From assembly GCA_964426185.1 (NCBI GenBank), contig CAYRPF010000081.1, positions 2,743 to 13,160 of the forward strand: a stretch of 10,418 nucleotides of DNA. Direction: 5' to 3'. The stretch is from an uncultured archaeon. GTDB lineage: Archaea; Asgardarchaeota; Lokiarchaeia; Sigyniarchaeales; Promethearchaeaceae. Shown piece by piece: positions 108 through 10,418 of the stretch. Positions within the stretch are counted from its first letter, which is position 1; the number at the start of each line of letters is the position of its first letter. Both the position numbers and the translations under genes were made by a program. The notes under the pieces were generated by a model. That model was not told the DNA's origin. It searched no databases and worked only from the letters and a program-made list of their open reading frames with translations.

Positions 108-3100
108 ATGTCTCTAAAAGAACAAGTCCCTAAAATATACGAACATTATGGTTTGACGGAAGAAGATTTAGATGTATATGTTGTTTTTCTGAAATATACT
201 CAATCGACTGTTTCAGAAGTGGCAGGAATTTTAAATAAATCCGATCCATCGAAAATTCAACCCATTGTTGATAAATTAGAACAGTTAAAATTTATTCATA
301 AAATTCCTGGTATTGTAGATCGCTATATTCCTCTGGAACCATACTTAAAATTGTTTGAAAAAGAAAATCTTCATTTTCGCGATGAAGTATCGGAAATTAA
401 AGATAATGTTTTGAGTGATCAAGCCTCTCGTTTCGAAAATTTAGAATCGAGCGAAAATTCAACTTCAGAACAAGTGAAATCATTTGTAGAAACACAAATT
501 TCGGAAATATTTCGGGAAAGCGATGATCAAGATGTTGAAAAGAAAAATTTGCTGGAAAATGCCACTAAAAGATTTACAGAAACGAGTAAAGTGGTAGAAC
601 AACAAATTGAACAATTTACCTTTAAAGCTCGTGATGATTTTGAGAATACTCGCCTAGCATATACCGAAAAAGTTCGTAAAACCACTGAAAATGCCAGGGA
701 TCGATTAAAAGACAGCTGCATTAGTTTGGAAAATGAAATTCAAACAGATGTATTCCACGCGCGTGATCGATTTCAAGATACCACCACACAAGTGGAAGGT
801 GAGATTCAGGCCATCTTGTTTGCCAGTAGAGATAGATATGAACAAACTTCACTTGATTTAGAAAAAGATTTGCACGAACACATAGATCATAATTATGAAC
901 AATTCAAATCTGCTGTTAATTCTCATGACACGCAGGTGAATGAAACCATTGATGGACATATCGGGAAGTTTAAAGCCGACAAAGAAATTTTTAATAATCA
1001 AATTGAAGAGTTCACTTCCACTCACAAAAATACCTATCAACAATTTGAAACCGATATCCACGCCATGATTGATACTCTCAACTCGGATTTAAAAAATATC
1101 GCGGAGGATTTCAAAAAAACTTATGATAACACAACTGTTGAGCACAAGAATATTTGGAATCAAATCGTTGATGATCTTTTAAAGGATTACGGATCACGGG
1201 TTCTAAACTTGGAAACTGAATGTAAGAAACAGTTAGATGAACACGTAGAACTTCATAAAGAAAATGTGTCCGAATTGCATCCGAAATTGCAAGAAACTTT
1301 GGAAAACTACTTGCTACGTATGAAAAATGTAGTTGATTCCTTAAAAGTCGAGTTTTCAGAACTATTGAAGAATCAAATTCAGAACAATCAAAATTTTACC
1401 TCCAAAATCCAAACTGACATTAAAGAAAAGATCGAAACTCGACACAGTGAATTAGCTGGGCAAGTACTCGCTTTTAAAAATTCTGCTGTGGAATTAATTG
1501 ACAATCTTAAAGATACCAGTGATAGATATGAAGGTTTGGCTAAAGATTTGGCTAAACGCGGCAGTGCATGGAAAGCCTTGTTATTTGGGAAGCATAAAAA
1601 ATTCTTGGATAATTATAATGAAATTCAAGAGCGAATTGGCAAGATATCAGGATCAATGAAAGCCACCTTTGAAGAAAGCACAGCTAATTATATTCAGCGA
1701 ACAGGAGAAACCACTTCTCAAATTAAAAAAGATGTAGATTCTATTGTGGCCAATGAAACCCAAAAGATGACCACCGATATTAACAACCTTGATGCAAAAC
1801 AAAATGAAACATTGGGTTTAGAATTGAACGATCTTGCTCATGATTTAAATGAAGAGACCACGTCACTCTTTCAACGTAATGTAGAACACTGTCAAACAAC
1901 TACCACTCAACTAAAAGATAAATTGGAATCGTCATTACATACTCATCACGATGATTTTGAACTGGCTTTTAATAAACATCGCCAGAATGTATTACAATTC
2001 AGTGATGAAACGAATTCTACTGCTAATTCCAAAATTGAGAAATGGTATAGTTCGATGGATTCTCGACATAATTCCGGTAAACAAAAAACTTCCGAAATAG
2101 TTCAAAATCATGATCAAAATGTTTTAGCCTATAAACAGCAAGTAACTGCCAATAACGATGAACATATCAGACTTTTAGCCACTGAAATGAGTGAATTTAA
2201 AAATCAACAAAGGAAAATCTTTGATAATCAACTCGGTATCATCCGTTCTGATTTTGATGGAACCAAGCAAACAATTTCCAAGAGTATTCATACTCAAATC
2301 GATTTAATCAAAAATGAAATTCAAAACTTGGATAACATGCAGCACCAGAAACTTGATGAGCAAATGGCTCTAGTCAAACAAGAATTTGAACATTTGGACA
2401 AACTGCAACATGAAAAGTTAGATCAGGAAATTGAAAAATTTACCAATGAAGTGGCTCAAATTAATAAAGTTCAGCAAGAGCAAATCGACCAACATATTGT
2501 CAAATTCAAAGAGATTATTGCCATTTTGGATTCCCAGCAAAAAGATGAGATCGATGGGCAAATTTCACTGGTGACGAATGAATTTCAACAACTGGAAAAT
2601 GATCTTCATGTGTTGTTGGAAAAGCGTAAGGCCGATTATCAAGAGAAACTAAACAATCTAAAAGCCGATCTCATTAACACTATGCATGAGAATATTCAAG
2701 ATACTAAAGATGCGATCGCAGACTTTACTTTAAATTTCATGAATTCGATTGATGAAGCCATTGAAATTGCCGAGGAAAATGTTAATGAACTTGCAGCTAT
2801 CAGCGATGCTTCTAATCAGATTATACCGTTGGGGCACAGTGCGACCTGGCATGTTTTTGGGACTCAATCTCTAATTGAATCTATTATTTCAGCTCTAAAA
2901 CGCACTAAAAGTACTATTACAATTATTACTCCCACAGTAGAACCAAAAGTACTGGAAGCTCTCTCACAAGTAGCTTATGAGAAAAAATCTGCCCGCTTTT
3001 TATATACCACAAATTGGGATTTAGGTAAATACGGACCGATTGTGGAGAAGATGAAAGTATTTGGAAACATTCAGTTTCGTAATTTGAAGAGTGCGAATGA

Positions 3101-3260
3101 TTTTTGGGCACTGAATAGAGACGGTGAGGAAATTGTTTTATGCCCTAAGGCAAATGATGAAAAAGACTTGATTGCGATTGTTTCAATTCAAGAGGGATAC
3201 GCCCAAATCTTTGGAAGTTTCATATATCCCATTTTTCAAGCCAATTCTCGCCCTATTTAA
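108..3260 (+). CDS. TrmB-like protein with giant coiled-coil insertion (wHTH, ~830-aa hendecad coiled coil, non-catalytic PLD-like effector domain)
   Basis: The N-terminus YGLTEEDLDVYVVFL..TVSEVAGIL..IVDKLEQLKFI..RYIPLEP fits the TrmB wHTH pattern. Residues 79-906 are helix-forming and E/Q/K/D-rich with a single Pro (P392). The C-terminus TWHVFG..IISALKRTKSTITIIT..RDGEEIVL fits the PLD-like TrmB middle domain and lacks HxKxxxxD. SD site present. Confidence 0.8.
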   Translation: MSLKEQVPKIYEHYGLTEEDLDVYVVFLKYTQSTVSEVAGILNKSDPSKIQPIVDKLEQLKFIHKIPGIVDRYIPLEPYLKLFEKENLHFRDEVSEIKDNVLSDQASRFENLESSENSTSEQVKSFVETQISEIFRESDDQDVEKKNLLENATKRFTETSKVVEQQIEQFTFKARDDFENTRLAYTEKVRKTTENARDRLKDSCISLENEIQTDVFHARDRFQDTTTQVEGEIQAILFASRDRYEQTSLDLEKDLHEHIDHNYEQFKSAVNSHDTQVNETIDGHIGKFKADKEIFNNQIEEFTSTHKNTYQQFETDIHAMIDTLNSDLKNIAEDFKKTYDNTTVEHKNIWNQIVDDLLKDYGSRVLNLETECKKQLDEHVELHKENVSELHPKLQETLENYLLRMKNVVDSLKVEFSELLKNQIQNNQNFTSKIQTDIKEKIETRHSELAGQVLAFKNSAVELIDNLKDTSDRYEGLAKDLAKRGSAWKALLFGKHKKFLDNYNEIQERIGKISGSMKATFEESTANYIQRTGETTSQIKKDVDSIVANETQKMTTDINNLDAKQNETLGLELNDLAHDLNEETTSLFQRNVEHCQTTTTQLKDKLESSLHTHHDDFELAFNKHRQNVLQFSDETNSTANSKIEKWYSSMDSRHNSGKQKTSEIVQNHDQNVLAYKQQVTANNDEHIRLLATEMSEFKNQQRKIFDNQLGIIRSDFDGTKQTISKSIHTQIDLIKNEIQNLDNMQHQKLDEQMALVKQEFEHLDKLQHEKLDQEIEKFTNEVAQINKVQQEQIDQHIVKFKEIIAILDSQQKDEIDGQISLVTNEFQQLENDLHVLLEKRKADYQEKLNNLKADLINTMHENIQDTKDAIADFTLNFMNSIDEAIEIAEENVNELAAISDASNQIIPLGHSATWHVFGTQSLIESIISALKRTKSTITIITPTVEPKVLEALSQVAYEKKSARFLYTTNWDLGKYGPIVEKMKVFGNIQFRNLKSANDFWALNRDGEEIVLCPKANDEKDLIAIVSIQEGYAQIFGSFIYPIFQANSRPI
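561..890 (+). repeat. Five in-frame 22-aa (66-nt) degenerate repeats, N-terminal arm (aa 152-261)
   Basis: ATKRFTETSKVVEQQIEQFTFK / ARDDFENTRLAYTEKVRKTTEN / ARDRLKDSCISLENEIQTDVFH / ARDRFQDTTTQVEGEIQAILFA / SRDRYEQTSLDLEKDLHEHIDH, starting at 561, 627, 693, 759, 825. Confidence 0.85.
2208..2603 (+). repeat. Five to six in-frame 22-aa degenerate repeats, C-terminal arm (aa 701-832)
   Basis: QRKIFDNQLGIIRSDFDGTKQT / ISKSIHTQIDLIKNEIQNLDNM / QHQKLDEQMALVKQEFEHLDKL / QHEKLDQEIEKFTNEVAQINKV / QQEQIDQHIVKFKEIIAILDSQ / QKDEIDGQISLVTNEFQQLEND. Confidence 0.85.
2915..3066 (+). repeat. 152-bp direct repeat, copy 1 (inside gene 1)
   Basis: Identical to 6043-6194 except C3036/T6164; offset 3128 bp. Confidence 0.95.
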
Positions 3261-3344: not shown

Positions 3345-3498
3345 TTTTCCTTCTATAGTTCTCTTCGAGCATTTTCCAGTGAAGTTCTCTAATTTTCCTT
3401 CTAAGATCGGCGATCTTCACAATGATTGGTTCACATTGAGAAAAATCGTCAAAAATCTTTACAATTAATTTCTTCAATTCCGTTCCAATTTTTTCATT
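3345..3498 (-). pseudogene. Probable remnant of the C-terminal half of a DUF47 (PhoU-like) phosphate transport regulator
   Basis: The frame reads NEKIGTELKKLIVKIFDDFSQCEPIIVKIADLRRKIRELHWKMLEENY, resembling the second helical repeat of DUF47 and complementing the N-terminal remnants at 6565-6821 and 8626-8771. Assigned by pattern only; boundaries approximate. Confidence 0.5.
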
Positions 3499-5489
3499 AT
3501 AAATAATTCTTTCAATAAATTTTCAAGATTTGGCACATCACGTGATTTTAGTACACTTCCTGTTTTCATTGAAAAGTTTAATTTATCTATAGTAGAATGT
3601 GTTTTTTGAACTTCATCAATGAACTTTGTAAATCTCTTTTTTGCTAAATATGATTGCCCTAAAAAGATATAACAAGCCATAAAAGGTGAAATATGCTTCA
3701 TCAAAATAGAGTAATCTCCAAAAACAGCTCGATCAAAGCCTTTAGAGAAAATTTCATCACTAAAACTGTTAAAAGCAGATAAAAATCCGCTAAACAAATT
3801 TTCATTTACATTCCATTGATCATCAAAAGTTTTTTTATAAAGTGGTAATCCATTTTCTGTTAGTATCATGATAAAAACTGGATCTTCCTCATGGATTTTT
3901 GGTTCTTCTTCAAATCCATTTCTGTATAACATAGAATTTATTTGCTTATCGATTTTAATTTTGTTTAATCTTTCTTCAATTGGGGCATTATCTGATCGCA
4001 ATTTTTTCCAAGCAGCTAAATTACTAACAAGTTCATCATTTTCATTTGAAATTTTTATGTTTAATTTTTTTAATCCATAGGTTTCTGCGATATTTTGCCC
4101 TTGGCTAAGAAATTTTCTTGCGGAATCAATATCTAAAGATAATAAAGCCAATTTAGATTTCAATAGTAATGTATCTCCCATAACCCAATAAGAGCCTTGA
4201 TTATCAGCAATTTTGAATAATCGATCAATAAGAAGATTTAATTCATTCAAAATTTCAGAATTCTTTGATGTTTTAAATTCAAGAACCAGCATTTCACATA
4301 GATTTACCATTGCACGAATTGTTATTTCTACAATAATAAACTCTTCTTCTGAAATTTCCTTTAAAATTCTCTGAGCTTCTCCCAAATCGCGAGTCCTTGA
4401 GCTTTTTCTTAGAAAAAGAGCTTTGATAAACCTATAAATTAAATTTATCTTTTTGTTATTTTCCTTTAAATTTATCTGTTCAATACGATCTAAACATTCT
4501 TTAGCAGACTTTAAATCACTTTTATTAAGATATGCATGGAATAATCCTTCTATTAAATTTGCAATTTCCGTTTGATTTCCCATTTTTTCTGCAATTATCA
4601 AACATTCCTTAAAACAGTTAATTGCTTTATCCCATTCTGCGAGATTAATGTAGTTGCATCCTAGGTTATTCAAAGCCATATAATAAACCATTTTTCGATT
4701 GTTTTCTTTGGCAAGTTTTATTGCATATTTTATATTATCTACTGCTTTGATGAGTTCTCCTTTTAGTGTGTAGATCATACCATATATGATAAAAACACTG
4801 ATCTTCCAATCTATAAATTGATATGGAACTTTAATTTCTGAGAATATTTTGTCTGCTCTTTTTAAAAGAACTAAAGCTTTATCATATTCTCCTAAAAAGG
4901 AATAAGGGCTAGCAGATAATATACAAGCTCCACCTAATCTCAATTTATCCCCAATTTCTTCATATATAGTAATCATTTCACTTGTAATGCTAATAAGTTC
5001 AGATATTTTTCCAAAATTATAATCAATCCATGCTTTTATTCTTAGGTATTGCCCACGTAATTCCATTTTTACAATGCGATCTTCTTTTGGGAGATTTTCT
5101 ATTAACTTTTTGATATTTTCTAATATTTCTGAACTTTTTTCTAAATTCCCTGTTTTTTGTAATAATTCGGTAAAAAGAAAGTATGAATTAATTTTATCTA
5201 TAGAATTCTCAATTTTATTAGCAATTTGATAAGATTTTTCTGCCGAAATTAATGCATCTTGGAATTTATCCTTTATCATTAGAATTTTGCCTATTAAATA
5301 ATAATATATCAATTGTGACTTAATGGATAATTCTTCAATTTGCTCTTGTGTTAATGAATTTAATGAATTTAAAGCAGAATCGAATTTTTCTTCTTTAAAA
5401 TATTGCTTAGCATCAATGATTTCTTTCGGAAATTTATTTCTTTTTTGCAGAAGTTTTTTCAAAAAAATCTTAAAAGATTTTTTAACCAT
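3474..5489 (-). CDS. TPR-repeat protein with C-terminal longin-like domain
   Basis: TPR-like motifs (ALNNLGCNYINLAEWDKAINCFKECLIIAEK; GMIYTLKGELIKAVDNIKYAIKLA). The C-terminal PVFIMILTENGLPLYKKTF..LFSGFLSAFNSFSDEIF..DRAVFGDYSILMK..ACYIF..LAKKRFTKFIDEV has the beta-beta-alpha-beta-beta-beta-alpha order of longin domains. ATG 5489 preferred over TTG 5504. Confidence 0.85.
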   Translation of the reverse strand: MVKKSFKIFLKKLLQKRNKFPKEIIDAKQYFKEEKFDSALNSLNSLTQEQIEELSIKSQLIYYYLIGKILMIKDKFQDALISAEKSYQIANKIENSIDKINSYFLFTELLQKTGNLEKSSEILENIKKLIENLPKEDRIVKMELRGQYLRIKAWIDYNFGKISELISITSEMITIYEEIGDKLRLGGACILSASPYSFLGEYDKALVLLKRADKIFSEIKVPYQFIDWKISVFIIYGMIYTLKGELIKAVDNIKYAIKLAKENNRKMVYYMALNNLGCNYINLAEWDKAINCFKECLIIAEKMGNQTEIANLIEGLFHAYLNKSDLKSAKECLDRIEQINLKENNKKINLIYRFIKALFLRKSSRTRDLGEAQRILKEISEEEFIIVEITIRAMVNLCEMLVLEFKTSKNSEILNELNLLIDRLFKIADNQGSYWVMGDTLLLKSKLALLSLDIDSARKFLSQGQNIAETYGLKKLNIKISNENDELVSNLAAWKKLRSDNAPIEERLNKIKIDKQINSMLYRNGFEEEPKIHEEDPVFIMILTENGLPLYKKTFDDQWNVNENLFSGFLSAFNSFSDEIFSKGFDRAVFGDYSILMKHISPFMACYIFLGQSYLAKKRFTKFIDEVQKTHSTIDKLNFSMKTGSVLKSRDVPNLENLLKELFIMKKLERN

Positions 5490-5971
5490 AATTTTTTTTC
5501 TCAATTAGAATATTTATATCTAATTAAAAATACCGATGAATTTTAAAATTCAAGGATCAATTTGGATACTCCTTTTTTTTATTCTATTTTCTTAATTTTC
5601 ATTTAATTTATGTATTTGAAGAGTGCTATCTGTTAAAACGAAGAAAAAGTTGTCTTTTTACATAAGAATCTTCTTTTGGATATTTTCTACAAAGTTTTCA
5701 TTCCTAAATACCCAAATTCTAAATTCTCCTTTGTTGGATATACTGGTGTGTTAAAATGTGAGATGAAAAAAGAAAAATGAGAAATCTTCTAATTTATCCT
5801 TCGACTTGAAAATTCATCAAAATACCTTTTTTTTCCTACTTATCGGTTAGTCTTTTAACAATTATTCCTTTTACTCATTCCGCTTAATGTCTGAGAAAAT
5901 GCCATGCGATGACATAGTTAAACGATTACTATGATTAAGTTCGTTAATTATCATCACGTTAAACCGTTAGT

Positions 5972-6004
5972 GCTTGATTGAGAAGAAATTTGATAGAGAA
6001 CTTG
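5972..6004 (-). repeat. 33-bp copy of the histidine kinase 3' end
   Basis: GCTTGATTGAGAAGAAATTTGATAGAGAACTTG matches 8799-8831 at 31/33 positions. Confidence 0.85.
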
Positions 6005-6251
6005 GGACACAGTGCGACTTGGCATGTTTTTAGAACTCAAGTTATTACAATTATTACTCCCACAGTAGAACCAAAAGTACTGGAAGCTCTCTCACAAGTA
6101 GCTTATGAGAAAAAATCTGCCCGCTTTTTATATACCACAAATTGGGATTTAGGTAAATACGGATCGATTGTGGAGAAGATGAAAGTATTTGGAACACATC
6201 TTTAGAAGTATTATATATCCCATCTTTCAAGCAAATTCACTTCTGATATAA
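6002..6251 (+). pseudogene. Internally deleted copy of the 3' end of gene 1
   Basis: 6002-6040 matches 2829-2867 (35/39); 6043-6194 matches 2915-3066 (151/152); 6195-6251 matches 3204-3260 (45/57, including the TAA). Net deletions of 45 and 137 nt. Confidence 0.93.
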
Positions 6252-6314: not shown

Positions 6315-6566
6315 TTATATGATAATCACTCCAATGATCCAATAGCACAGCATAGCCAACAATGCGGCTACTGGAAAAGTTATTATCCAACTTAACACCA
6401 TTTTCCTGAAGGATTTTTTATCTGGTCTTTCATCTTTTACCCTTCCCGCTCCAATTACCGTAAAGATTAAGATATGGCTACCAGAAACAGGTAGTCCTAA
6501 GATAATGGCTAAGAAAATGACAATGCTGGTAGAAATTTGAATGCTAAAGGCATCACTCGGGTGCAT
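6315..6566 (-). pseudogene. pit: 3' remnant of a PiT/PHO4-family inorganic phosphate transporter
   Basis: PSDAFSIQISTSIVIFLAIILGLPVSGSHILIFTVIGAG..MVLSWIITFPVAALL matches the PHO4 C-terminal signature (GxPVSxxH, WIITxP). Only ~83 aa of a normally >300-aa protein remain, joined directly to DUF47 sequence. Confidence 0.85.
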
Positions 6567-6821
6567 TTTCGAACTACAATCTCACACTCATCTACAATTT
6601 TATCCATCTTTTCTTTGGTAAATAACCTTTTAATAATTTGCGATCGGAGCTTATCTTGTTCTTTTTCAATTTTGATGGTTTTTTGAGATTCTTCTTTCTT
6701 TTTAGCGCCATCTTCGACTAAATATGCTTGAATTGCAGCGCTCATGGAATGAAATGCTTTTTCAGTTAAAATTGCATCTTCATTATACAAAGATTGCAAA
6801 CTTGGGATATTTTTTTTTCAT
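6565..6821 (-). pseudogene. 5' remnant of DUF47 (PhoU-like) phosphate transport regulator, copy A
   Basis: ATG at 6821 followed by a frameshift. TIKIEKEQDKLRSQIIKRLF..KMDKIVDECE matches DUF47 motifs (ExExD..I..L; DxIxD), but the segment usually between them appears deleted. Lies upstream of pit as in standard DUF47-pit operons. Confidence 0.8.
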
Positions 6822-6996: not shown

Positions 6997-7048
6997 TTTT
7001 TATTTTCAAAAAAGTAAAAGTTTTTATTTTCAAAAAAGTAAAAGTTTT
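6997..7048. repeat. Perfect 24-bp tandem duplication upstream of gdhA
   Basis: TTTTTATTTTCAAAAAAGTAAAAG at 6997-7020 and 7021-7044, followed by TTTT. Confidence 0.9.
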
Positions 7049-7185: not shown

Positions 7186-8556
<1,371 letters not shown>

Positions 8557-8602: not shown

Positions 8603-8625
8603 AGATTCTCATTGATATCGCGTGT

Positions 8626-8771
8626 GATCAGAGCTTATCTTGTTCTTTTTCCATTTTAATGGTTTTTTGGGCTTCTTCGTTCTTTTTTTTCATTTTCAAG
8701 TAGGTATGCTTGAACCGTAGCACTCATGAAGTGAAATGCTTGTTCAGTTAAACTTGGGATTTTTTTTTCAT
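8626..8771 (-). pseudogene. 5' remnant of DUF47, copy B
   Basis: Roughly 80-85% identical by eye to 6642-6821. Reads LTEQAFHFMSATVQAYLLEN..NEEAQKTIKMEKEQDKL*, with a 30-nt deletion, a frameshift in an A-run and a CGA->TGA nonsense change. Confidence 0.85.
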
Positions 8772-8786
8772 CATTCTTCTTCAGCT

Positions 8787-10418
8787 TTATAAATTTTCGC
8801 CTGATTGAGAAGAGATTTGATAGAGAACTTGTTTTAATTGTTTAAGAGTATAGGGTTTTTTAAGAAATCCGTCGAATCCGTATTGACGAAAATTCGCTAT
8901 GATTGGATCTGTTGAGTATCCACTAGAGACAATAACAGGAATTTTGGAATCAATTTTTTTCACCATTTTCAGAATTGATTCTCCTCCTAAATCTCCAGGA
9001 ATGGTGAGATCTGTTATAACTACATCAAACGGTTTTGAGCTGTTTTGTTGTTTCTGAAAAATTTCTTTAACTTCTTGGCTAGTATAAGCTGATTTGATCT
9101 TGATATCCAAATAATTGCAAAATCGCTGCATAATTGTGTGAATTGCCTCATCATCATCATAAAATAAGATATATTCAATTTTTGGCGAGCCGATTGCAGA
9201 TTTTTCTTTTTTTGAAGATTGGCTGGAAGATTGAATTATCGGAAGAAGAATTATAAACGTGGTACCTTTATTTTTGACTGTGCGGAATGTAATTAATCCT
9301 TCATGATTTTGAATGATAGAATAAGAAGTTGCTAGCCCTAAACCTGATCCAGTGGGTTTTGTGGAAAAATAAGGCTCGAAAATGTGTTTTTGAAATTCAA
9401 AGGGAATACCTGGACCCGTATCTTCGATTTCAATTTGAATATAATTGCCTGGAGATAAAGGAATAACATCATCTTTAGAAATTTGGATATTCGCCGCTCG
9501 AACATAAAGATTTCCTCCATCGGGCATGGCTTGAAGAGCGTTAATCACCAAATTATTTATTACTTGAGAGATCTGGCTTTCATCGACCTTAGTATCCGGT
9601 AAATCTTCTGGAATTTCAAAATGATATTTAATTTTTGAACCTCTGAGCACAAATTTCGTGGTATCATATAGAATTTCTTTTATCGATGCCAATTTCTTTA
9701 TCGGTGCACCACCTTTTGAAAAAGTTAAAAGTTGGTTGGTTAAATCACGCGCCCGAAAAGTAGCTTTTTCTAAATCAGAGAGATATTCCTGGTTTTCTTT
9801 ATCTGTGATATTTATTTGGAGCAGGTTAATTGTTCCTAAAATACTTGTAAGGATATTGTTAAAATCATGAGCAATTCCACCAGCGAGAATCCCTATACTT
9901 TGAAGCTTTTCTCGGTGAAGCTGCTCTTCTATCCGTTTTTTTCGTTGTGAAATATCTCTAATAAATGTTGTGGCATACTGAAGTTTTTCGTCTTGATAAA
10001 TAAAGCGAGAACTTATTTCCACAAAAATTCGAGTCTTATCCTTTTTGATCATCTCTATTTCGTATGTTGTTTGGTTCGTTTCCTTACTTAATTTTTTATC
10101 TCCCATCCGATCCATGCGGTCCCAATAATTGGTATCTACGAACTCGCGAAAATCATGGTTTATCATCTCTTCTTTGGAAAAACCCAATATTTCTTCGCAA
10201 GCAGGATTTACCCCCACAATAATCCTATTCGGATCTATTTGAATAATCATATCACTGGCTTGTTCAATGATTTTCTGGTATTCATAAGTTTTGTCACGTG
10301 CAATTGATTCAGCTTGTTTTTGAGCAGTAATATCTTTAAAAGTAGTAATATCTTCTCCGTTACCAATTTTTATTTCTTCTATTATTGCCCACTTTTTCGT
10401 ACCATCTTTACATACGAT
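8787..10418 (-). CDS. Multi-PAS hybrid sensor histidine kinase/response regulator (CckA/NtrB-like), 5' end outside the window
   Basis: H-box GIAHDFNNIL, N-box NNLVINALQAM, G1 DTGPGI, F FEPYFSTK, G2 GSGLGL; receiver YDDD..TDLTIP..SSGY..KKP; PAS/PAC ending RDISQRK. The frame stays open for 56 codons upstream of the track's ATG, to the window edge (IVCKDGTKKW..KDITAQKQAE, the end of another PAC). Confidence 0.95.
   Translation of the reverse strand: MVCKDGTKKWAIIEEIKIGNGEDITTFKDITAQKQAESIARDKTYEYQKIIEQASDMIIQIDPNRIIVGVNPACEEILGFSKEEMINHDFREFVDTNYWDRMDRMGDKKLSKETNQTTYEIEMIKKDKTRIFVEISSRFIYQDEKLQYATTFIRDISQRKKRIEEQLHREKLQSIGILAGGIAHDFNNILTSILGTINLLQINITDKENQEYLSDLEKATFRARDLTNQLLTFSKGGAPIKKLASIKEILYDTTKFVLRGSKIKYHFEIPEDLPDTKVDESQISQVINNLVINALQAMPDGGNLYVRAANIQISKDDVIPLSPGNYIQIEIEDTGPGIPFEFQKHIFEPYFSTKPTGSGLGLATSYSIIQNHEGLITFRTVKNKGTTFIILLPIIQSSSQSSKKEKSAIGSPKIEYILFYDDDEAIHTIMQRFCNYLDIKIKSAYTSQEVKEIFQKQQNSSKPFDVVITDLTIPGDLGGESILKMVKKIDSKIPVIVSSGYSTDPIIANFRQYGFDGFLKKPYTLKQLKQVLYQISSQSGENL

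Follow-up and report, generated by a model that had tools for sequence, protein, structure and literature searches.

TrmB and TrmBL2 are archaeal winged helix-turn-helix (wHTH) regulators, the latter being a chromatin protein of the Thermococcales, and the tetrabrachion stalk of Staphylothermus marinus is a long archaeal hendecad coil, parallel, four-stranded and part of the extracellular S-layer. A 2007 study by Alexander and Zhulin is said to have described the cytoplasmic hairpin of chemoreceptors and its heptad length classes. These classes run from 24H to 64H (MiST 3.0, PMC6943060), and the arms of SMC proteins are also heptad-based, with length modes ~100 amino acids (aa) apart and functional lengths lying on a superhelix period of ~91-99 aa (Burmann et al. 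2017, PMC5344682). Here we describe an uncharacterised protein of 1050 aa, hereafter the rod protein, encoded on a 10,418-nucleotide (nt) stretch of DNA from an uncultured archaeon of the Asgard order Sigyniarchaeales (the window: positions 2,743 to 13,160, forward strand, of contig CAYRPF010000081.1 in GenBank assembly GCA_964426185.1). Between its two terminal domains this protein carries a very long hendecad rod, the two arms of which have changed length by identical amounts in every full-length homologue we could align.

We read the rod protein as a TrmB/TrmBL2-like DNA-binding protein in which an ~800-aa, length-matched antiparallel hendecad hairpin serves as the linker, and put the probability of this reading at roughly 85%. 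Like the chemoreceptors, it would combine an antiparallel helical hairpin with length classes that arise through symmetric insertions and deletions (indels) in both arms; the step is a heptad of 7 residues there and 11 residues here. The protein is encoded by an open reading frame (ORF) at positions 108-3260 of the plus strand, in which aa 152-832, the span of the repeats discussed below, correspond exactly to window positions 561-2603. The gene occurs once in its own 3.26-Mb genome, a 3' fragment copy aside. Its parts, in window coordinates, are the following.

108-3260, plus strand: whole rod gene, 1050 aa and a stop codon
108-341, plus strand: N-terminal TrmB-type wHTH domain, aa 1-78 (Pfam PF01978; AlphaFold secondary structure; VIA-align)
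342-1553, plus strand: N arm, continuous hendecad helix, aa 79-482 (period 3.667, z = 29.7; constant phase; AlphaFold helices)
561-890, plus strand: N-arm array of five 22-aa units of the ARDRF type, aa 152-261, making up variable zone 1 (1-5 units across length classes)
867-1136, plus strand: N-arm variable zone 2, approximately aa 254-343 (paired indels of 11, 18, 22 and 62 aa in relatives)
1554-1592, plus strand: tip loop, aa 483-495, basic and hydrophobic, between G485 and G494 (conservation; AlphaFold; 7, 8 or 11 aa long in relatives)
1593-2816, plus strand: C arm, hendecad helix predicted to run antiparallel to the N arm, aa 496-903 (period 3.667, z = 33.9; covariation; hairpin superposition on 2ch7_B)
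2010-2285, plus strand: C-arm variable zone 2, approximately aa 635-726, partner of N-arm zone 2 (mirrored alignment gaps)
2208-2603, plus strand: C-arm array of five 22-aa units of the QHxKLD type, aa 723-832, with a weaker sixth at aa 701-722, making up variable zone 1 (units, self-similarity, gaps)
2841-3248, plus strand: C-terminal PLD-like alpha/beta domain of the TrmB/TrmBL2 type, aa 912-1047 (VIA-align; Foldseek; no HxK motif)

Homologues of the rod protein cluster at discrete lengths (751, 830, 848, 853, 874, 897, 918, 939, 962, 981, 1006 and 1050 aa). When the arms of each homologue were measured between conserved anchors, the deficit of the N arm equalled that of the C arm in 116/116 full-length homologues of a first alignment, and an independent L-INS-i alignment, to which proteins from genome loci had been added, gave matched arms in 174/174 full-length homologues, all of them Asgard. 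Unpaired indels, which would have spoken against coupled arms, were found in none of the 174; two apparent exceptions of the first pass were traced to an anchor lying inside a paired 11-aa gap and to a truncated entry. The shared deficits fall into eleven classes (0, -22, -44, -55, -66, -77, -88, -99, -106, -110 and -150 aa). The same result was obtained free of alignment, by measuring how far the IPLEP motif lies from the first glycine of the tip and how far the ADFT motif lies from the second: across ten length classes, the two distances are offset by a constant 34 residues in all but one of the 98 scorable sequences (97/98), and the one that departs has an aberrant match to the ADFT motif.

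The gaps of a MAFFT alignment lie in two mirrored pairs of zones (aa 153-242/727-814 and aa 254-343/635-726), and each pair mirrors about residues 480-489. Proteins of 874, 918, 962, 1006 and 1050 aa form a ladder that corresponds to 1/1 to 5/5 repeat units in the N and C arms, the two counts rising together. This is the spacing that a sequence-only reading of the window had anticipated for orthologues, multiples of 44 aa split evenly between the arms. That reading had also set the step of rod length at 22 residues, which holds in the long-rod clade for its ARDRF/QHxKLD arrays; across the family as a whole, length changes in steps of 11 aa. In zone 2 the paired changes measure 11, 18/19 (11+7), 22 and 62 (5x11+7) aa, and all step sizes amount to whole helical turns (11 residues to 3 turns, 18 to 5, 22 to 6 and 62 to 17).

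On a tree built from conserved columns only, at least 22 parsimony changes of length state are required, identical in both arms, and sister pairs differ by matched amounts (0 vs -22 aa for P0011 and P0012; 0 vs -44 aa for P0013 and P0019). The matched unit counts, from 1/1 to 5/5, bear out one half of the proposal that independent 66-nt duplications were kept in matched numbers; that the duplications were separate is what we infer, and expansion can be told from loss at some of the steps. Most of the 22 paired changes might be non-independent even if the hairpin holds, with a few length-class origins having been spread by whole-rod recombination between alleles. Crossovers in the conserved flanks would be expected to shift both arrays together, the tree behind the figure of 22 was built on conserved head and tip columns only, and the DNA units are old (36-61% identical), all of which would suit such a history. 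We give it a small chance of being correct, as it has to accommodate at least eight paired indel types at different places, each needing its own paired origin (22-aa steps in zone 1; +11, -11, -18/19, -22 and -62 aa in zone 2; -11 aa in an inner zone), as well as a homologue of 918 aa (L011) that reaches this length via the second zone, by another combination than P0020.

The 22-residue arrays at aa 152-261 and 701/723-832, first noticed in the sequence-only reading, proved real. Units of the N-arm array begin at aa 152, 174, 196, 218 and 240, four of the five opening with ARD or SRD followed by an aromatic residue or Leu, and those of the C arm comprise five 22-mers with starts between aa 723 and 811, of the type Q(H/Q/K)x(K/Q/E)(L/I)D, preceded by the weaker sixth unit. 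Self-similarity was measured as the mean BLOSUM62 score at an offset of 22 and compared both with full shuffles and with shuffles that keep the hendecad position of each residue. The N array scored 1.17 (25% identity; z = 9.0 against full shuffles, 3.8 against register-preserving ones) and the C array 1.28-1.47 (26-30% identity; z = 7.9-9.0 and 4.7-4.8, respectively). Offsets of 11 and 33 were negative against the register-preserving shuffle, and the repeat unit is therefore 22 residues rather than 11.

Nothing was found in favour of dismissing the repeats and their symmetry as chance, or as an artefact of composition or alignment, although low-complexity helical sequence can inflate similarity scores. 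The likelihood of chance or artefact is practically negligible, because the register-preserving shuffles still leave z = 3.8-4.8, two alignment methods and the alignment-free test agree, and the arms match in all 174 homologues; a repeat by chance or composition was rejected on the same shuffles. At the DNA level the 66-nt units share 36-61% identity and their third codon positions are saturated, from which it follows that the duplications are old. This degree of divergence also explains why neither Tandem Repeats Finder nor a second repeat search of the window detected a 66-nt repeat in the DNA. The two arrays are the facing halves of a 44-residue module (22 + 22 residues, ~3.3 nm) that is present in 1-5 copies across Lokiarchaeial lineages.

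The rod is built on hendecads throughout. A Fourier scan of hydrophobicity gave a single sharp peak at 3.667 (11/3) in both the N arm (z = 29.7) and the C arm (z = 33.9), and no signal at the heptad period of 3.5 in either arm, confirming the hendecad coil that had been proposed from the 11/22 spacing. This periodicity extends beyond the arrays over the whole rod (aa 80-903), its phase being nearly constant within each arm and jumping by ~120 degrees between aa 476 and 519. In 176 relatives, each of the 352 arms has its peak at 3.66-3.68. Hendecads, which fit 11 residues into 3 turns, hardly supercoil, and the rod is therefore expected to be nearly straight. Approximately three large hydrophobic residues per 11, on four adjacent positions of the helical wheel, form a narrow face, and a core this lean suggests a coil of the two-stranded type. 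Distant relatives (P0138-P0265; 20-25% identity, 700-1792 aa) almost all show a periodicity of 3.66-3.69 in both halves, which suggests a wider superfamily of hendecad rods sharing the C-terminal domain.

A separate feature of the N arm is a site at L390 and P392 (window 1275-1283), two residues that are invariant in 121 homologues. It may form a conserved kink or elbow, the N-arm helix being broken at residue 386 in one AlphaFold run.

An 11/3 periodicity is also typical of lipid-binding amphipathic helices, and under an apolipoprotein-like explanation the 11/22-mers would be helices lying on a lipid surface, with the arms matched as a belt or hairpin around lipid. Apolipoproteins A-I and A-IV share with the rod the 22-residue units of two 11-mers, the 11/3 periodicity and a weak profile similarity: the Pfam Apolipoprotein model matches the helical middle of the protein at E = 1.9e-10, and a profile of the rod family picks up chains of ApoA-IV and ApoA-I (E = 1.5e-7 to 1e-4). 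When the protein was searched singly against PDB sequences, the only match, to ApoA-I, was at chance level (E = 0.63). The Pfam score of 41.2 bits, however, lies far under the cut-off of 90. Proline punctuation is absent, P392 being the single Pro in the rod; the hydrophobic face is narrow (~3 of 11 positions); the arms score as a pair in complex prediction with no lipid present; and the protein is archaeal and cytoplasmic, with a head predicted to bind DNA. Lipid binding is accordingly a very improbable function for these helices. Membership in the apolipoprotein A1/A4/E family (PF01442) was rejected on the sub-cut-off score and the lone proline.

Covariation among the homologues points to an antiparallel pairing of the arms. 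Mutual information with average product correction, computed over pairs of one N-arm and one C-arm column, peaks on an anti-diagonal at i+j = 976-982 (z = 3.5) and extends to pairs that lie between the head and the variable zones, such as 137/839; over all column pairs a near-diagonal background dominated, and it was the restriction to N x C pairs that gave the signal. Cross-correlation of hydrophobicity between the arms yielded comb peaks at i+j = 978 and 982, and the two glycines that flank the tip loop, G485 and G494, are near invariant. These three lines of evidence place the mirror centre at 489-491, and not at residue 492 as had been calculated from the array boundaries. The sequence-only reading had also paired aa 152-261 with aa 723-832; at i+j of ~978-982 the N array faces aa 717-830, so that the proposed partners are correct to within 2-6 residues, but the predicted contacts within the arrays are weak.

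At the arrays themselves, pairing rests on the symmetry of the indels, on covariation in the flanks and on a complex prediction of weak support. In the latter, aa 130-330 against aa 650-850 scored 0.53 (best control, 0.00), with at least 94% of contacts agreeing between runs and a partner predicted local distance difference test (pLDDT) score of at least 83. Among 80 solved complexes 58 reach that mark, against 2 among 110 mismatched pairs; only 7 of the 80, and both of the mismatches that pass, do so with a score no higher than 0.60. These counts are rough here because a custom alignment was supplied. Single-chain AlphaFold2 models show helices at aa 79-212, 248-385 and 387-482 in one run or 79-211 and 213-482 in another, a loop at 483-495 or 483-488, and a helix from there to residue 903 (mean pLDDT 74.7 with 121 aligned sequences, 71.7 with 28). 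In VIA-align the model fits, as a hairpin, onto the chemoreceptor structure 2ch7_B (model residues 323-653; Z = 12.0, root-mean-square deviation (rmsd) 8.9, 303 residues aligned) and also onto Smc5/6 arms and PrgA.

In one alternative the arms meet between two chains rather than within one. TrmB-family proteins act as dimers, and an antiparallel homodimer with no fold-back, made of extended ~120-nm chains in which each N arm pairs with the C arm of the partner chain, would by its geometry require matched indels and anti-diagonal covariation just as a hairpin does. Each end would then carry the wHTH of one chain beside the PLD-like domain of its partner, and the dimer would bridge DNA. Several features speak against this arrangement. 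The near-invariant G485 and G494 enclose a short segment that is a loop in both AlphaFold runs, and a continuous helix would be thrown out of phase by tip loops of 7, 8 or 11 aa, the lengths found in relatives. From one arm to the other the hydrophobic phase moves by ~120 degrees, which makes one continuous seam through the tip unlikely, and the monomer model folds back. On this evidence the extended homodimer appears quite improbable, and we infer a fold-back within one chain.

Several observations weigh against the intramolecular hairpin as we propose it. Matched indels are equally required in an antiparallel dimer lacking a fold-back. The covariation is modest (z = 3.5, from an effective number of ~83 sequences). 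AlphaFold confidence is lowest in the middle of the arrays (pLDDT 37-55 over aa 190-240 and 730-790); a run on long-class sequences only made the N arm one continuous helix and still left the arrays at a pLDDT of ~50. The predicted template modelling scores are low (0.32 and 0.27), and a Z of ~12 for long helical pairs is suggestive at most, as it may reflect a common arrangement only.

Under the hairpin reading, the N arm (aa 79-482) would run out from the head, turn at the Gly-flanked loop (aa 483-495) and be met by the C arm (aa 496-903) returning antiparallel, so that the two head domains are rejoined. At ~0.15 nm per residue, arithmetic gives a rod of ~60 nm here and of ~37 nm in the 751-aa relatives. 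If residue i packs against residue ~978-982 minus i, an insertion in one arm would therefore need an equal one opposite, and an unmatched insertion would cost the head, the tip or the register. Eleven added residues make whole turns and would leave the tip unrotated, allowing the length to change in steps of 1.6 nm. Each step would probably have taken two separate duplications ~1.7 kb apart, with selection removing the unmatched intermediates. The rod may thus act as a rigid spacer of fixed length between the DNA bound at the head and a partner of the conserved basic-hydrophobic tip.

Both terminal domains resemble those of the TrmB family. Pfam PF01978 (TrmB) matches aa 13-78 with 30.0 bits against a cut-off of 25.6, a scan restricted to the first 151 aa raises the score to 34.4 bits, and VIA-align places the wHTH protein 2d1h_A on model residues 1-94 (Z = 10.8). 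The C domain aligns with the PLD-like N-subdomain of the TrmB effector domain (2f5t_X, residues 110-238; Z = 16.6, rmsd 2.1, 127 residues aligned), a likeness at the level of the fold only, and with 3qph_A (Z = 15.4) and TrmBL2 (5box_A; Z = 14.5, the preceding helix included) in VIA-align; Foldseek supports the same assignment. It differs in sequence from TrmB in that the Pfam model of the TrmB C-terminal part misses it, and no Pfam family matches aa 895-1050 even at E = 10. Direct reading of the sequence found no HxK motif in the C domain, and we therefore rejected its identity as a catalytic PLD.

The sugar-binding beta-barrel subdomain of TrmB proper is absent from the rod protein, which ends at aa 1050 right after the PLD-like domain, and TrmBL2 has no such subdomain either. 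The linker helix of TrmBL2 aligns with the helix that enters the C domain of the rod protein. In place of the single short linker/dimerisation helix of the TrmB family, the rod protein has ~825 aa of helix from aa 79 to aa 903, that is, an ~800-aa hendecad hairpin with a conserved tip as against a linker of ~40 aa in TrmB and TrmBL2 (3qph, 2f5t, 5box). In the models, the architecture is that of TrmBL2 with the linker helix drawn out to a hairpin, and DNA binding is predicted.

Beyond the step size, the rod protein differs from chemoreceptors in having no MCPsignal domain, methylation or kinase-control region; it is soluble, with a predicted DNA-binding head, and its lean core suggests two strands rather than a four-helix bundle. 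Membership among the chemoreceptors was rejected, there being no PF00015 match at E <= 0.01 and no power at a period of 3.5. The arms of SMC, Rad50 and MukB offer a second parallel: intramolecular antiparallel coiled coils, tens of nm long, that rejoin the N- and C-terminal parts of a head on DNA and, in SMC, come in discrete natural length classes, with whole-arm matches to our model by Foldseek and VIA-align. The rod protein has no ABC ATPase head, hinge or zinc hook, and whereas a superhelical period sets the length of SMC arms, an untwisted hendecad permits 11-aa steps. SMC/Rad50 membership was rejected, since no ATPase family was found in Pfam or NCBIfam (the NCBIfam scan gave only a spurious sub-threshold MCR-10 match), the tip (aa 483-495) contains no Cys, and the structural matches are to arms only. 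With tetrabrachion the likeness, by description only, is that of a long, nearly straight archaeal rod of 11-residue repeats, but the rod here is predicted to be an antiparallel hairpin in a cytoplasmic DNA-binding protein. Compensatory indels as a principle are thus familiar from both chemoreceptors and the arms of SMC proteins; the literature we searched describes neither a hendecad step, nor a record free of exceptions, nor this protein family.

Homologues were collected by a word-seeded search (236 matches), an exhaustive search of representatives (187 matches) and a scan of species genomes (160 loci). All matches with a named organism are Asgard, apart from one on a short contig assigned to a Bathyarchaeota bin. 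Within the order to which the window belongs (families f1 and f2), 26 of the 27 other genomes sampled gave strong matches over the full length, while the rest of a 151-genome sample of the phylum gave distant matches only, to the C-terminal part. The homologue of Ca. Harpocratesius repetitus is 1050 aa long and 79% identical. Both cultured Asgard archaea carry the rod protein, at unlike lengths: 1050 aa in Ca. Lokiarchaeum ossiferum B35 and 963 aa in Promethearchaeum syntrophicum MK-D1. Its Atlas clusters are all named "hypothetical protein", and no published description of the family was found in the literature searched on Asgard and Lokiarchaeota proteins; in one Asgard chromatin preprint, TrmBL appears only as a proteome category.

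The family thus presents a rule with no exception in 174 natural sequences, followed in hendecad steps along a rod with no supercoil, and shows how length can be tuned in increments of 1.6-3.3 nm while the tip stays unturned relative to the head. Taken together with a head resembling a chromatin protein and with the protein's occurrence in both cultured Asgard archaea and nearly all sampled genomes of the order, this provides a testable handle on the arrangement of DNA in the closest prokaryotic relatives of eukaryotes, and the length classes amount to a natural series of length-graded straight hairpins for coiled-coil design. A bolder idea, which we consider unlikely, is that the rod protein is the first known case of an undescribed class of Asgard molecular rulers, with a TrmBL2-like chromatin-binding head on a straight hendecad hairpin of ~37-60 nm whose conserved basic-hydrophobic tip docks on the membrane, the cytoskeleton or another rod. 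If true, DNA would be held at a stepwise distance specific to the lineage, in a prokaryotic counterpart of chromatin-envelope tethers, and the distant relatives of up to 1792 aa, with the same periodicity, could exceed 100 nm.

Comparison of related loci yielded no operon partner or functional clue from conserved gene neighbours. These lie on the opposite strand and are either housekeeping genes or unrelated ones: Fae-Hps, an HVO_0163-type HTH protein, a nitroreductase, ribosomal protein S6e and a 232-aa ORF. The 232-aa ORF, which has no Pfam family (e.g., L018:7047-7742, minus strand), lies upstream of the rod gene in divergent orientation at 44 of 79 loci and is directly adjacent in 25; the window begins short of its position.

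Within the window, a 152-nt direct repeat (2915-3066 and 6043-6194, 99% identical; also 5987-6196) duplicates a portion of the rod gene's 3' end. A 75-aa fragment sharing 90% identity with aa 903-987 of the rod protein is encoded by the downstream copy, and the two copies flank the gene of a 676-aa TPR protein (3474-5504, minus strand). An 83-aa ORF at 6315-6566 (minus strand) matches the Pfam model of PHO4 phosphate transporters over its final 73 positions only and looks like a gene remnant. Further downstream, the NADP-glutamate dehydrogenase gene gdhA (7201-8556) is flanked on both sides by copies of a 65-nt direct repeat (6639-6703 and 8623-8687, 89% identical), and a perfect 24-nt tandem repeat of 2.2 copies (6997-7048) lies ~150 nt upstream of this gene. 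The last gene, a hybrid histidine kinase of PAS-HisKA-HATPase-receiver architecture (8787-10418, minus strand), runs off the end of the window.

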